Assembly: GCF_000026545.1 (NCBI RefSeq)
Contig: NC_011601.1
DNA length: 64,000 nucleotides
Direction: 5' to 3' (one strand)
From: Escherichia coli O127:H6 str. E2348/69
GTDB taxonomy: Bacteria > Pseudomonadota > Gammaproteobacteria > Enterobacterales > Enterobacteriaceae
Shown here piece by piece: positions 25,301 through 31,300 of this stretch; the first letter of the stretch is position 1, and every line of letters begins with the position of its first letter. The position numbers are program-made.

Positions 25301-28300
25301 TTCTGGTGATTGAATTCAATCATTCAAAATGCCGTAGCCTACGTAACATGGTCTAATTTTATAATTTATTCGAGTGATTAATAACTTGAGCTTGCTCACA
25401 TTTAATCAATTGTGATTGAATATAATCATTATTATCATAAAACAACCTGGAGTGATGATGGAAAAGGGAATCACTAAGCCGAGCATTCTCGTCGTTGCCG
25501 ATGATTTCACGGGAGCCAACGACGCGGGGGTAAGCCTGGCGCAGGTGGGGCATACAGTTGATGTGGCCTTTGAAATGCCTTATCACGGTGATGCCAGCGT
25601 ATGGGTGATTAACAGCGACAGCCGGGCGATGGATCCTAAGCTGGCGGCGATGAAAATAACCTCGCTGATGAGTCATCTCCCTCTGGCGAATAACCCGCCG
25701 CTCGTGATTAAAAAGATAGATTCCACGCTTCGAGGCAATATCGGCGCAGAAATTGAAGCCCTGATGAAGGCATGCGGTATAACGGGCGCAGTGATTGCCC
25801 CCGCATTTCCTCAGGCGGGAAGGACCACAGTGGCCGGTGAGTGTTGGGTAAACGGTGTGCGGATAACGGAAACCGAGTTTGCCAGCGATCCGAAAACCCC
25901 GGTATTGAGCGCCCGAATTGCGGACATCATCCGGTTGCAGACGGCCATTCCATGCCAGCCCGTTACGGTTTCTCAGCTCAGCCATTTGTCTTATGAGCAA
26001 CCGTGGATTGGCGTGATAGATGCGCAGACGGACAGCGACCTGGATCGCATCGCTGCCGCTGTGATGCAGGCTAAACAACCGCTACTGCTGGTCGGCTCCG
26101 CTGGTATTTGTGATGCCGTTGCCCGGCGCTCCGCGATTATGCCGCCACCCACCGTGCTGGCCATTATTGGTTCAATGAGCGAAATCGCTCAACGGCAGAT
26201 CGCCACACTGCATTCACACCCACGTATCACACAGATATACGTCGATGTTGAACACATTCTGGCAGGCAATGCCAGTGACTATGACGCGCGTATTGTGCAG
26301 GCCTTGCAGAAAGGCGACCACTGCATTGTCCACACCTGTAACGATTCTGTAGCAAGGCATCAGATCGACACCCTTTGCCAGCGTTGGCAGATGAGTCGCG
26401 CTGCACTTGGGGAAAAAATTTGTCGGTTTCTTGGCGAACTTACCCGGCAAGTTCTGCTTCGCACAATGCCCGATGCGCTTTATCTCTCTGGTGGCGATGT
26501 CGCAATGGCAACAGCCAGTGCGTTAGGCGCGACCGGGTTTCGTATTACGGGGAAGGTGGCGCAATGCGTTCCATATGGTCACTTTCTGGGCGGCGTCTGG
26601 TCCCGTTCGGTGATGACGAAAGCCGGTGGGTTTGGCGATGAGACCACGTTGCATCAGGTTCTGAATTTTATCGAGGAGAAGCGTAGTGAATAACATTATT
26701 GCGGTAACGATGGGCGATCCGGCGGGTATTGGCCCGGAGATCATTATTAAATCCCTGAGCGAAGCCGGGCTTGCTGGTACCCCGGTGGTGGTGGTGGGCT
26801 GTGTGCGCACGCTGCGACGTATTATGGCGATGAATATCACGCCGCAGGCAGAGTTACGCGTCATTCAAAAGGTGTGCGACGCCCACTTTGCTCCCGGCGT
26901 GATTAACGTGATGGATGAGCCTCTGGCTAACCCCGATGCGCTGACACCTGGTGTGGTACAGGCTGCGGCAGGCGATTTAGCGTATCGCTGTATCAAACGT
27001 GCAACGGCCCTGGCCTTATCAGGCGAGGTGAAAGCCATAGCCACTGCGCCGTTGAATAAAGAAGCGCTGCATCTTGGCGGGCATAACTATCCGGGGCATA
27101 CGGAATTGCTGGCCCATCTTACCGGCAGCAAAGAGTACGCGATGGTGCTCTATACCGATAAGCTCAAGGTTATCCATATTTCGACTCACATCTCACTGCG
27201 TAAATTCCTGGATACTTTGAATGGTGAAAGGGTCAAAACGGTTATTCGAGTTGCGAACCACTTCCTGAAACGTGTCGGCATTGAGCGTCCGCGTATTGCC
27301 GTGGCGGGTGTAAATCCACATGCAGGGGAACACGGTTTATTCGGCACTGAGGAAATCGAGATTATCGCACCTGCGATTGAAGCAATGCAGGCCGAAGATA
27401 TTGATGTTACTGGCCCGTGCCCGCCAGATACCGTGTTCATGCAGTGCCATGAAGGGCTATTCGATATGGTGGTGGCTATGTACCATGATCAGGGGCATAT
27501 CCCTTTAAAACTGCTTGGATTTTATGATGGGGTGAATATCACCGCCGGGTTGCCATTTATTCGCACTTCTGCCGACCACGGCACCGCGTTTGATATTGCC
27601 TGGACAGGAAAAGCCAAGTCTGAGAGCATGGCAGTTTCCATCCAGTTAGCAATGCAGATTTCGCGAGAATAAAATGAAGGGATATAACCGGTTAGAGCAG
27701 ATCATGGATTACCTGAAAAGCCATAATCTGGTCACCGTTGATGAGCTGGTGGCGGTAACCAATGCGTCGCCGGCTACGATTCGTCGAGACCTGATAAAAC
27801 TCGATGAGCAGGGTGTTATCAGCCGTACACACGGCGGTGTGACCCTCAACCGGTTTATTCCTACCCAACCGACTACCCATGAGAAAATGCAGCGCAGCCT
27901 GGCGGAAAAACATGCTATCGCCAGCGCAGCGGCGTCAATGGTCAAAGCGGGGGATTCCGTCGTCCTTGATGCCGGTACGACAATGATTGAACTTGCGCGG
28001 CAGATTACACATTTACCGCTTCGCGTGATCACCAGCGACCTGCATATCGCGCTTTTTTTGGCTGAATTCAAGCAAATTGAAGTGACGATTATCGGCGGAC
28101 GTATCGACGACTCCAGCCAGTCCTGCATTGGCGAACATGGTCGTAAATTGCTGCAAAATACCTGGCCGGACGTGGCATTTTTAAGCTGTAACAGCTGGGA
28201 TCTTGAAAAGGGTATTACAGCACCCACGGAAGAGAAAGCCGCACTAAAACGCGATCTTATCGCGCATGCTTCGCGCAAAATTCTCCTGGCTGACAGCTCA

Positions 28301-31300
28301 AAATACGGTTCATGGTCGCTGTTTAATATCGCGCATCTTAATGAACTGACAGAGATTATTACGGATAGTCAGCTTGATGGGCAGACGCGTAGAACGCTTG
28401 CGTCCTTGTCGACGCGTTTAATCATAGCCGACTAATCTATGACTCTGCGGCCAGCTCATCCGGCAATTTAATAAATGCGTCAGGCTGGCGACGTTTGGCC
28501 TTACGTTTCCAGCGCGAGGATCTGCTGGCAGTAGCGCAGAAAACGCCCCAATATCTTACGCAAAACCATTTTTTCGCTAACTAACAGTTGTCAGCCTGTC
28601 CCGCTTATAAGATCATACGCCGTTATACGTTGTTTACGCTTTGAGGAATCCACGATGAGTGAGGCAGAAGCCCGCCCGACTAACTTTATCCGTCAGATCA
28701 TCGATGAAGATCTGGCCAGTGGTAAGCACACCACAGTACACACCCGTTTCCCGCCGGAGCCGAATGGCTATCTGCATATTGGCCATGCGAAATCTATCTG
28801 CCTGAACTTCGGGATCGCCCAGGACTATAAAGGCCAGTGCAACCTGCGTTTCGACGACACTAACCCGGTAAAAGAAGATATCGAGTATGTCGATTCGATC
28901 AAAAACGACGTAGAGTGGTTAGGTTTTCACTGGTCTGGTAACGTCCGTTACTCCTCCGATTATTTTGATCAGCTCCACGCCTATGCGATCGAACTGATCA
29001 ATAAAGGCCTGGCGTACGTTGATGAACTGACGCCGGAACAGATCCGCGAATACCGCGGCACCTTGACGCAGCCGGGTAAAAACAGCCCGTACCGCGATCG
29101 CAGCGTTGAAGAGAACCTGGCGCTGTTCGAGAAAATGCGTACCGGCGGTTTTGAAGAAGGTAAAGCCTGCCTGCGTGCGAAGATCGACATGGCTTCGCCG
29201 TTTATCGTGATGCGCGATCCGGTGCTGTACCGCATTAAGTTTGCTGAACACCACCAGACTGGCAACAAGTGGTGCATCTACCCGATGTACGACTTCACCC
29301 ACTGCATCAGCGATGCGCTGGAAGGTATTACGCACTCTCTGTGTACGCTTGAGTTCCAGGACAACCGCCGTCTGTACGACTGGGTACTGGACAATATCAC
29401 CATTCCTGTTCACCCGCGCCAGTACGAATTCTCGCGCCTGAATCTGGAATACACTGTGATGTCCAAGCGTAAGCTGAACCTGCTGGTGACCGATAAGCAC
29501 GTTGAAGGCTGGGATGACCCACGTATGCCGACCATTTCTGGTCTGCGTCGTCGTGGTTACACTGCGGCTTCTATTCGTGAGTTCTGCAAACGCATTGGTG
29601 TGACCAAGCAGGACAACACCATTGAGATGGCGTCACTGGAATCCTGCATCCGTGAAGATCTCAACGAAAATGCGCCGCGCGCAATGGCGGTTATCGATCC
29701 GGTGAAACTGGTTATCGAAAACTACCAGGGCGAAGGCGAAATGGTTACCATGCCGAACCATCCGAATAAACCGGAAATGGGCAGCCGCCAGGTGCCATTT
29801 AGCGGTGAGATTTGGATCGATCGCGCCGATTTCCGCGAAGAAGCTAACAAGCAGTACAAACGTCTGGTGCTGGGTAAAGAAGTGCGTCTGCGTAATGCTT
29901 ACGTCATTAAGGCAGAACGCGTCGAGAAAGATGCCGAAGGCAATATCACCACCATCTTCTGTACTTATGACGCCGACACCTTAAGCAAAGATCCGGCAGA
30001 TGGTCGTAAAGTCAAAGGTGTTATTCACTGGGTGAGCGCGGCACATGCGCTGCCGGTTGAAATCCGTTTGTATGACCGTCTGTTCAGCGTGCCGAACCCT
30101 GGTGCTGCGGATGATTTCCTGTCGGTGATTAACCCGGAATCGCTGGTGATCAAACAGGGCTTTGCTGAACCGTCGCTGAAAGATGCGGTTGCGGGTAAAG
30201 CATTCCAGTTTGAGCGTGAAGGTTACTTCTGCCTCGACAGCCGCCATTCTACGGCGGAAAAACCGGTATTTAACCGCACCGTTGGGCTGCGTGATACCTG
30301 GGCGAAAGTAGGCGAGTAAGTTTACGTTGTCGGATAGAGCGTTTACGCCGCATCCGGCAAGAAATATGCAAATTATCCCAAACGCCGCGCTCTGCGGCGT
30401 TTTTTTCTGCTTTTCTTCGCGAATTAATTCCGCTTCGCAATTTATCCATAAAATAAATTTAAAATCACAAAACATAATTAAATAAAATGTAACCGCTTTC
30501 ATCTTGCTGGAATTTCACGTTTTTATTCTTCTGCAAGCCTTTCAACTGCAAACTTAAGCCTTGTAACAAAAATCATCAAAATATGTGCGGTTGCTCATGT
30601 TCTTACATTCTGGTTACAGAAAGAGATTGATAATTCGCGTCGCGAAAAATAGTCTGTTCCTGTAGTCAGCGAGACTTTTCTCAACGCTACTTTTTTAATT
30701 TTTATTTTTTTCGCTGTTCACCTTTGGTGCAGCAATTTATACGTCAAAGAGGATTAACCCATGCGTGCGTTTAGTGGCAAACGTAGTACGCTGGCGCTGG
30801 CTATCGCCGGTGTTACAGCTATGTCGGGCTTTATGGCAATTCCGGAGGCTCGCGCCGAAGGATTCATCGACGATTCAACCTTAACCGGCGGTATCTATTA
30901 CTGGCAGCGTGAACGCGACCGTAAAGATGTTACCGACGGCGATAAATACAAAACTAACCTTTCTCACTCCACCTGGAACGCCAACCTCGATTTTCAGTCT
31001 GGTTATGCTGCTGATATGTTCGGCCTTGATATTGCCGCGTTTACGGCGATTGAAATGGCGGAAAACGGCGACAGCTCTCACCCGAACGAAATCGCGTTTT
31101 CAAAAAGTAATAAAGCCTATGACGAAGACTGGTCCGGCGATAAAAGCGGTATAAGCCTGTATAAAGCAGCGGCCAAATTTAAATACGGTCCGGTTTGGGC
31201 GAGGGCAGGTTATATTCAGCCAACCGGTCAGACGCTGTTAGTGCCACACTGGAGCTTTATGCCGGGTACTTATCAGGGGGCGGAGGCCGGGGCGAATTTT

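Follow-up and report, generated by a model that had tools for sequence, protein, structure and literature searches.

A D-threonate kinase, a PdxA2-type dehydrogenase and a DeoR-family regulator as the probable terminal module of a nine-gene acidic-sugar island in Escherichia coli

We analyzed a 64,000-nucleotide stretch of contig NC_011601.1 (hereafter, the window) from Escherichia coli O127:H6 str. E2348/69, focusing on a trio of genes that encodes a DUF1537-family kinase, a PdxA-like dehydrogenase and a DeoR-family regulator. The region under study is 100% identical to E2348/69, which is an enteropathogenic E. coli (EPEC) strain. The trio is one arm of a nine-gene island; a divergent six-gene operon, encoding an anion permease, a YhcH protein, a BNR/Asp-box propeller, a TerC protein, a DHDPS-type aldolase and an iron-containing alcohol dehydrogenase (Fe-ADH), is the other. 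We think it fairly likely that the trio is the terminal module, together with the regulator, of a single acidic-sugar catabolic island. The gene identities, the conserved synteny and a conserved operator-like palindrome are established here. The substrate would be a 3-deoxy-heptulosaric acid, most plausibly Dha from pectin, and we put forward tentatively, as a possibility with the balance against it, that with this island a catabolic pathway is described for the first time for Dha, the C7 diacid sugar of pectin rhamnogalacturonan-II.

Family membership was assigned by score against NCBIfam equivalog cut-offs, and structures were compared through sequence matches in the PDB. The kinase has the two-domain architecture of its family, SBD_N (PF07005; residues 10-220, 1.8e-53) followed by NBD_C (PF17042; 234-398, 6.1e-31), and scores 533.5 bits against the D-threonate kinase equivalog NF047819, whose cut-off is 450. 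It stays below the cut-offs for OtnK (106.7 vs 350 bits) and OiaK (29.7 vs 700). Its two domains and the NF047819 score rule out a non-kinase DUF1537 protein. The top PDB match is the Pectobacterium protein 4XFM/4XGJ (E 7.6e-95), with 44% identity to 4XFM, a structure that is reported to contain bound D-threonate. Because 4XFM is 91-93% identical to the cluster-type kinases of three Pectobacterium species, the crystallized protein is an orthologue from the same type of gene cluster. The dehydrogenase scores 680.3 bits against the PdxA2 equivalog NF002891 (cut-off 583), lies below the cut-offs of all PdxA-specific NF models and passes the broad TIGR00557, as expected for a paralogue. It matches the PdxA2 structures 6E85 (E 3.8e-173) and 2HI1 (6.4e-166) far better than E. 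coli PdxA, 1PS6 (only 5.5e-56), and the GHTEL, NPHAGE and HDQGH motifs are kept in its alignment. The NF002891 score and these E-values rule out a canonical biosynthetic PdxA. An earlier note, made from the DNA alone, had recognized a DUF1537 kinase paired with a PdxA2; this identification stands, and neither a canonical PdxA placement nor a defective DUF1537 protein, the two outcomes that it had named as counting against it, was found. Judged by sequence, the two enzymes are a D-threonate-to-dihydroxyacetone phosphate (DHAP) pair. RefSeq already names them D-threonate kinase and D-threonate 4-phosphate dehydrogenase, beside a DeoR/GlpR regulator, and the pair is hence not new.

Reading of the sequence also bears out the gene layout that had been proposed. 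The kinase open reading frame (ORF) stops with TAA at 26691-26693. Position 26686 begins the GTG start codon of the PdxA-like ORF, giving an 8-bp overlap, and a GAGGAG (26673-26678) lies 7 bases upstream of this GTG. The PdxA-like stop, TAA, occupies 27670-27672, and the DeoR gene follows after a 1-bp gap, with ATG at 27674 and its end at 28435. The kinase has two adjacent in-frame ATGs, at 25455 and 25458. Its start is probably the second, because this is the RefSeq choice, because it gives a protein of 411 aa, equal in length to the Yersinia orthologue, and because the GGAG at 25449-25452 is better spaced from it than from the first. Thus, the module keeps the end proposed for it and its start moves from 25455 to 25458. 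The loci of Yersinia enterocolitica and Aeromonas have the identical 8-bp overlap and 1-bp gap, and the trio architecture is therefore conserved; at one distant locus, L087, the kinase and PdxA genes overlap by 4 bp. Such short overlaps, common in operons, are compatible with the translational coupling that the earlier note had asserted, without proving it.

The borders of the island were defined by blastn against an island-less E. coli (L086), in which the flanks meet at window positions 19447/28571 and 38 unrelated bp replace the island. Among 5426 complete E. coli genomes, the two arms are found in 1048 and 1046 (~19%), and they co-occur. The island has no integrase or tRNA and no repeats at its flanks, and its GC content is near that of the surrounding window, so that an origin as a mobile element finds no support in either. 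In 2026 the island was listed as 'GR 6 nagE..glnS', with its features uncharacterised, in model strains of extraintestinal pathogenic (ExPEC) and adherent-invasive E. coli (AIEC); that study took the kinase/PdxA2 pair as related to pyridoxal 5'-phosphate (PLP) and gives 40% identity between the island kinase and Salmonella DtnK and 75% between the dehydrogenase and Salmonella PdxA2 (PMC12928451). To speak of a new context for the family, as had been done, is thus an overstatement: the genes are named in RefSeq, the 4XFM orthologue sits in the same cluster type, and the island has been listed.

The linkage of the two arms is kept far beyond E. coli. A profile scan based on an 8-sequence alignment of BNR relatives, with one genome per species, gave 80 loci (handles with an L denote the loci and genomes compared here), and tblastn of the nine island proteins found 74 of them to have enough flank to be informative. 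Genes for DtnK, PdxA2, Fe-ADH and the DHDPS aldolase all lie within 10 kb of the BNR gene in 56 of the 74 informative loci, and 5 more are partial. The clusters span more than 25 genera of Enterobacterales (among them the Klebsiella oxytoca group, Enterobacter, Leclercia, Kosakonia, Phytobacter, Pantoea, Erwinia, Pectobacterium, Dickeya, Rahnella, Yersinia and Serratia), plus Vibrio, Tolumonas and Aeromonas, and occur in Firmicutes too; their distribution is biased to plant-associated and pectinolytic genera. Evolution of the kinase is much more rapid than that of the other operon proteins: across L002-L083, kinase orthologues have a median identity of 51% to the one in E. coli, against 76-79% for PdxA2, DeoR, BNR and the aldolase. 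What varies in the cluster is the transporter, which can be SLC13 with TerC, SSF, MFS-ACS (sugar-acid type), TRAP-TAXI or an Opp-type ABC system.

The distant locus L087 is informative about the enzyme roles. It keeps the BNR, DeoR, PdxA and DUF1537 genes, an HpcH/HpaI-type aldolase (best matches: the keto-deoxy-diacid aldolases GarL and HpaI) replaces the DHDPS protein, and an aldo-keto reductase stands in for the Fe-ADH. From this non-orthologous displacement, it would seem that some pyruvate aldolase and some aldehyde reductase are required ahead of the kinase step. The earlier proposal that the divergent operon would generate the four-carbon acid in situ is well supported, with comparative genomics as its basis.

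In Bacillus haynesii, Lysinibacillus and Clostridium caldaquaticum, the cluster enzymes are co-directional and lie beside a sigma-54 activator of the PrpR type; the DeoR regulator is absent from the annotated B. haynesii flank. The PrpR-like activators inside the Firmicutes clusters (L082:11295-13097 and L080:3276-5093; 600-605 aa, 35% mutual identity) stand where proteobacterial clusters use the DeoR repressor. The C. caldaquaticum permease (L080:1747-3027) is 78% identical to that of E. coli (19456-20736), whereas the enzymes beside it are only 26-49% identical to their E. coli counterparts and the BNR protein 61%, which suggests that the permease gene moved recently between phyla by horizontal transfer.

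A 16-bp palindrome may link the two operons at the level of regulation. Two copies lie in the 169-bp divergent region, TGATTGAATATAATCA on the kinase side and TGATTGAATTCAATCA on the Fe-ADH side, and the rest of the window has none (chance expectation 0.37). In the intergenic region between kinase and Fe-ADH genes, TGATTGAATATAATCA is identical in 45 of 58 divergent loci and within 1-2 bases in the rest, a near-invariance that contrasts with kinases at only ~51% identity, and copies related to TGATTGAATTCAATCA are present in many orthologous loci. A weak promoter-like TTGTGA-17-TATCAT (25410-25438) overlaps TGATTGAATATAATCA; scanning the island for sigma-70 promoters and terminators gave no more matches than expected by chance. 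The DeoR protein aligns over its full length to the AgaR, GlpR and YgbI models and misses every equivalog cut-off, so that it is given no specific orthologue; related DeoR proteins of other cluster loci, at 78-79% identity, carry HTH_DeoR (PF08220) and DeoRC (PF00455). The simplest reading of the two palindromes is that they would form a shared operator for the DeoR protein.

Table 1. Predicted features of the nagE-glnS island (window coordinates).
Feature	Position	Strand	Basis or remark
Accessory island, 9,123 bp, between nagE terminator and glnS promoter	19448..28570		blastn vs island-less E. coli
Anion permease, SLC13/DASS- and CitMHS-like, predicted acid-sugar importer	19456..20736	-	RefSeq 'SLC13 family permease'; weak DASS match
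YhcH/YjgK/YiaL (DUF386), predicted anomerase/ring-opening helper	20750..21220	-	TIGR00022
Cytoplasmic BNR/Asp-box six-bladed propeller, remote GH33 relative, predicted ketosidase	21217..22386	-	BNR_2, AF2 fold
TerC-family membrane protein	22422..23180	-	RefSeq name; YkoY/YjbE-like matches sub-cut-off
DHDPS/NanA-family class I pyruvate aldolase (predicted)	23240..24127	-	Sub-cut-off for DapA/NanA/KdgD; catalytic residues
Iron-containing alcohol dehydrogenase (Fe-ADH), predicted semialdehyde reductase	24131..25288	-	Reductase-group relatives
Operator-like perfect palindrome TGATTGAATTCAATCA	25307..25322		19 bp upstream of Fe-ADH start
Operator-like palindrome TGATTGAATATAATCA	25413..25428		30 bp upstream of dtnK; contains TATAAT
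dtnK, DUF1537 four-carbon acid-sugar kinase (D-threonate kinase)	25458..26693	+	Pfam, NF047819, 4XFM/4XGJ match, RefSeq name
PdxA2-type 4-phospho-D-threonate dehydrogenase (decarboxylating; DHAP + CO2)	26686..27672	+	NF002891, 6E85/2HI1 matches
DeoR/GlpR-family repressor, predicted regulator of both divergent operons	27674..28435	+	AgaR, GlpR, YgbI models sub-cut-off

The aldolase of the divergent operon falls below the cut-offs for DapA (189.9 vs 206.15), NanA (144.9 vs 281 and 110.6 vs 382) and KdgD, and looks active by its residues. The Schiff-base Lys (GIKDS), Tyr135 and a DapA-like Arg (YNIPxRTG) are kept in 64 of 66 cluster-linked orthologues; of the remaining two, one has Lys for Arg and one belongs to a degraded locus. 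Aspartate semialdehyde, the C4 aldehyde-acid that DapA uses, is held by its carboxylate at the Arg of YN(V/I)PxRTG. The relatives of the Fe-ADH are lactaldehyde reductase, 4-hydroxybutyrate dehydrogenase and sulfoacetaldehyde reductase, all below cut-off, and its top PDB relatives are FucO and methanol dehydrogenase. The Aeromonas orthologue of the permease carries the Pfam domains Na_sulph_symp and CitMHS.

The BNR protein has four S-x-D-x-G-x-x-W Asp-boxes and matches Pfam BNR_2 at 4e-65, and inspection of its N-terminus revealed no signal peptide. Its AlphaFold2 (AF2) model (pLDDT 93) has GH33 sialidases as its top PDB folds (TM 0.72, ~15% identity), and the family profile reaches sialidases at E 4e-11. 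Conserved R12 (xRxP), R219, R309 and Y352 (SYP) are candidates for a sialidase-like site, with R219 opposite a triad Arg and Y352 opposite a sialidase Tyr in the profile alignment, and three further Arg residues, R145, R221 and R371, are conserved too. Distant relatives adjoin glycoside hydrolases and sugar ABC systems, neighborhoods that fit a glycosidase family. We also considered a GH33 exo-sialidase acting on N-acetylneuraminic acid (Neu5Ac) with Nan partners and rejected it: the protein lacks a signal peptide and has no NCBIfam sialidase match, and nanK, nanE and nanT are absent from the RefSeq annotation of the island. The start of the YhcH gene overlaps the BNR stop by 4 bp, and the YhcH protein scores 97 bits against TIGR00022 (cut-off 45.5) and 91.5 against the NanQ anomerase model, under its cut-off of 160.

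Together, these assignments suggest a complete route, of which we infer every enzymatic step, the substrate and the pairing of repressor with operator. The permease would import a small glycoside of a 3-deoxy-hept-2-ulosaric acid, or the free acid; the cytoplasmic sialidase-fold BNR protein would free the acid, and YhcH would speed its anomer or ring opening. The DHDPS-type aldolase would then cleave the C7 keto-deoxy diacid to pyruvate and 2,3-dihydroxy-4-oxobutanoate, which Fe-ADH would reduce with NAD(P)H to D-threonate. DtnK would phosphorylate D-threonate at O4, and PdxA2 would oxidize and decarboxylate the product to DHAP and CO2, returning NADH. The net conversion would be substrate + ATP to pyruvate + DHAP + CO2, and the route would be redox-neutral because PdxA2 regenerates the NADH used by Fe-ADH. 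The DeoR protein, acting at the two palindromes, would keep both operons repressed until some intermediate of the pathway builds up.

The substrate is deduced backward from the kinase. Since the aldolase and then the reductase must yield a tetronate, the aldolase substrate would be a 3-deoxy-hept-2-ulosaric acid. By our own derivation, cleavage of 3-deoxy-hept-2-ulosarate gives pyruvate and OHC-CHOH-CHOH-COO-, and reduction of the aldehyde gives 2,3,4-trihydroxybutanoate; the D-lyxo configuration at C5/C6 becomes (2S,3R) after cleavage and reduction, which is D-threonate, the substrate assigned to DtnK. To our knowledge, a tetronate can arise by aldolase and then reductase from 3-deoxy-heptulosarates only, and among these Dha is the one known in nature. 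Kdo, KDN and Neu5Ac were rejected as substrates, as their aldol cleavage would give C5/C6 aldoses and leave no role for a tetronate kinase and PdxA2. The organic-anion transporters (SLC13/CitMHS, MFS-ACS, TRAP-TAXI, SSF) and the DapA-type Arg are signs of a dicarboxylate substrate, and with the GarL/HpaI-type replacement and the plant and pectinolytic bias they all fit a Dha-type picture. BNR and YhcH mirror sialidase and NanQ, which points to a small ketoside as the compound taken up. In the searchable literature we found no work joining D-threonate with pectin and none on heptulosaric acid catabolism or Dha catabolism. A search there for heptulosaric acid with aldolase returned only hexuronate catabolism and an Aspergillus niger transcriptome; the ECA376x locus tags are not mentioned in it and the PDB codes do not appear in a relevant context.

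Several observations weigh against the Dha pathway or parts of it. Identity between the kinase and characterised DtnKs reaches only about 40-44%. Where sialidases have the catalytic Glu, the profile alignment shows His/Gln in the BNR family; the BNR protein may therefore not be a canonical retaining ketosidase. Free Dha needs no glycosidase, and we know of no suitable small Dha ketoside shown to be accessible to cluster-bearing bacteria. It is hard to see what TerC would do in an acid-sugar pathway. At 13 BNR loci, the genes for kinase and aldolase are missing, indicating that the BNR module can serve other routes. A direct tie between cluster and pectin is also absent: approximate KdgR-box-like patterns had no match in Pectobacterium, Dickeya or the other cluster loci scanned, and the flanks of the Pectobacterium and Dickeya clusters hold a Zn/Mn ABC transporter, choline trimethylamine (TMA)-lyase, a methyl-accepting chemotaxis protein (MCP) and acnB, and no pectinases. 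A link to a pectin regulon thus gains no support from KdgR-like patterns or from flanking genes.

The variants of the cluster also differ in accessory genes. The TerC gene lies inside the operon only in variants with an SLC13-type permease (L003, L005-L007, L012, L018, L077); a TerC gene is also found near the distant cluster L088, and SSF-type variants have neither TerC nor SLC13. An extra 225-aa short-chain dehydrogenase/reductase (SDR) gene stands directly after YhcH in SSF-, MFS- and TRAP-type variants (L002:11641-12315, L045:11640-12317, L073:11681-12358) and in a module of BNR and YhcH only (L031:11638-12315). The Erwinia locus L045 also has a D-2-hydroxyacid dehydrogenase gene, and both this gene and the SDR are absent from the E. 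coli island. In Pantoea rodasii, an SSF-BNR-SDR module without kinase or aldolase (L038:6256-11853) lies beside a TtdR-like LysR gene and a tartrate dehydrogenase gene (TIGR02089, 574 bits); other BNR-only loci are L039-L044 and L047. The BNR family may feed more than one acid pathway. A tartrate branch at the P. rodasii locus was considered and set aside: oxidation of the predicted semialdehyde would yield D-(-)-tartrate, a compound that tartrate dehydrogenase does not normally take, and we treat the link as one of adjacency only.

The alternative that survives best keeps one pathway of the same architecture and changes its substrate or chemistry: another glycosidically bound 2-keto-3-deoxy acid, for example from a bacterial or algal polysaccharide, would enter it, and the true substrate of kinase and PdxA2 would be a related C4 acid or a D-threonate-like acid. 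Synteny and displacement back the enzyme roles and not the compound, the kinase is as divergent and fast-evolving as described above, the SDR and D-2-hydroxyacid dehydrogenase of many variants hint at additional chemistry, and esterases lie near L087 and L088. However, both enzymes score above curated D-threonate equivalog cut-offs, the kinase is orthologous by synteny to 4XFM, and the derivation above leads to a tetronate from 3-deoxy-heptulosarate only, with Dha as its natural example. We regard these variants, taken jointly, as unlikely.

Less probable still is that two unrelated modules happen to be adjacent, a trio for environmental D-threonate or D-erythronate and an operon that scavenges a sialic-acid-like nonulosonate. 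DtnK-PdxA2 pairs do work alone with a transporter, as DtnK, 4-phospho-D-threonate dehydrogenase and a supplied permease suffice for growth of E. coli on D-threonate (PMC10079672); moreover, the BNR protein, YhcH and the NanA-like lyase resemble the Nan set of sialidase, anomerase and lyase, and the 13 loci without kinase genes show the BNR gene standing apart. Yet the linkage is kept across phyla, through rearrangement and non-orthologous displacement, and both operons share the conserved operator-like palindrome. The aldolase does not reach the NanA cut-offs and comes nearest to DapA, the nanK, nanE and nanT genes are missing from the island, and the Fe-ADH would be left without a role.

The reading that survives least, and that we consider very improbable, is vitamin B6 salvage or detoxification of 4-hydroxythreonine, in which the DUF1537 kinase would phosphorylate 4-hydroxy-L-threonine and PdxA2 would feed PLP synthesis: E. 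coli has canonical pdxA and pdxB, and the genes sit in a catabolic island with a repressor, a transporter, an aldolase and a reductase. B6 salvage was assumed in the BEN2908 genome paper, and, as papers citing Thiaville 2016 present it, DUF1537 and PdxA2 proteins can perform these reactions and rescue pdx mutants; PdxA2, however, is classed as a paralogue for organic-acid catabolism, not PLP synthesis (PMC9997740).

We compared the proposed Dha pathway with four known systems. The D-threonate pair DtnK/PdxA2 (Salmonella STM0162/STM0163 and the Pectobacterium atrosepticum 4XFM protein) was reportedly described by Zhang et al. in PNAS in 2016. Like the island, it combines a two-domain kinase with an overlapping gene for a PdxA-paralogue dehydrogenase, and it converts D-threonate through 4-phospho-D-threonate to DHAP and CO2, as predicted here. 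By available descriptions, that route starts from imported D-threonate, whereas the island would make D-threonate in the cell and, unlike the described pair, is tied to a set of ketosidase-like protein, anomerase, aldolase and reductase.

The glucarate/galactarate route, in which GarL yields tartronate semialdehyde, GarR reduces it to glycerate and GarK phosphorylates the glycerate, has the same logic of a keto-deoxy-aldarate aldolase, a semialdehyde reductase and a kinase leading into glycolysis, and the L087 aldolase is itself GarL/HpaI-like. In contrast to this route, the island substrate would be one carbon longer and give a tetronate instead of glycerate, followed by an extra decarboxylation by PdxA2. 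The island aldolase is of the class I DHDPS type, the reductase an Fe-ADH and the kinase a DUF1537 protein, and the island has a glycosidase-like protein and no dehydratase.

With NanH, NanQ (YhcH) and NanA, the island shares folds and the same implied order: a GH33-like propeller, a DUF386 protein and a DHDPS-family lyase. All three island proteins, however, fall under Nan-specific cut-offs, the propeller is cytoplasmic with His/Gln at the Glu position, and a reductase, a kinase and PdxA2 replace the processing of N-acetylmannosamine (ManNAc), with nanK, nanE and nanT lacking. Finally, the YgbJKLM proteins of E. coli K-12 (LtnD-OtnK-OtnC-OtnI), which act on L-threonate/3-oxo-tetronate, also place a DUF1537 kinase under a DeoR-type repressor, and YgbI is among the best matches of the island regulator. 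Apiose routes (D-apionate, OiaK) link DUF1537 kinases to a rhamnogalacturonan-II sugar. The island kinase differs from these in being weak on the OtnK and OiaK models and in having PdxA2 as its partner instead of a class II aldolase-type decarboxylase or an isomerase.

Elsewhere in the window, gltI and lnt are separated by a gene (1056-2933) for an intramembrane protease of the rhomboid family, 625 aa long, which may be accessory relative to K-12. A type 1 fimbrial protein pseudogene fragment (RefSeq; internal stop, N-terminus missing) lies between abrB and gltA (58989-59384).

The feeding module upstream of the known trio is without an assignment in the searchable literature, and what seems new in this work is a specific and testable proposal for the island in its entirety. 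Through the divergent operon, an 'orphan' route of two steps from D-threonate would become the closing part of a complete and redox-balanced pathway with a concrete substrate; if the Dha reading is true, it would also identify the natural source of D-threonate for DtnK and PdxA2. The proposal would bear on how bacteria other than Bacteroides break down the rare acidic sugars of rhamnogalacturonan-II; according to a 2026 preprint, pathways in other gut microbes are unconfirmed for several of the rhamnogalacturonan-II products that Bacteroides secretes. If the Dha assignment is true, island-bearing E. coli, about one-fifth of complete genomes and including EPEC E2348/69 and the ExPEC and AIEC strains of PMC12928451, could use a pectin sugar, and so could many plant-associated bacteria, feeding on what primary degraders like Bacteroides set free. 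The pathway would give functions to a widespread cytoplasmic sialidase-fold family, an unassigned DHDPS-family aldolase and an Fe-ADH, and it would account for a metabolic island by which about one-fifth of E. coli strains, EPEC and ExPEC models among them, differ from K-12.

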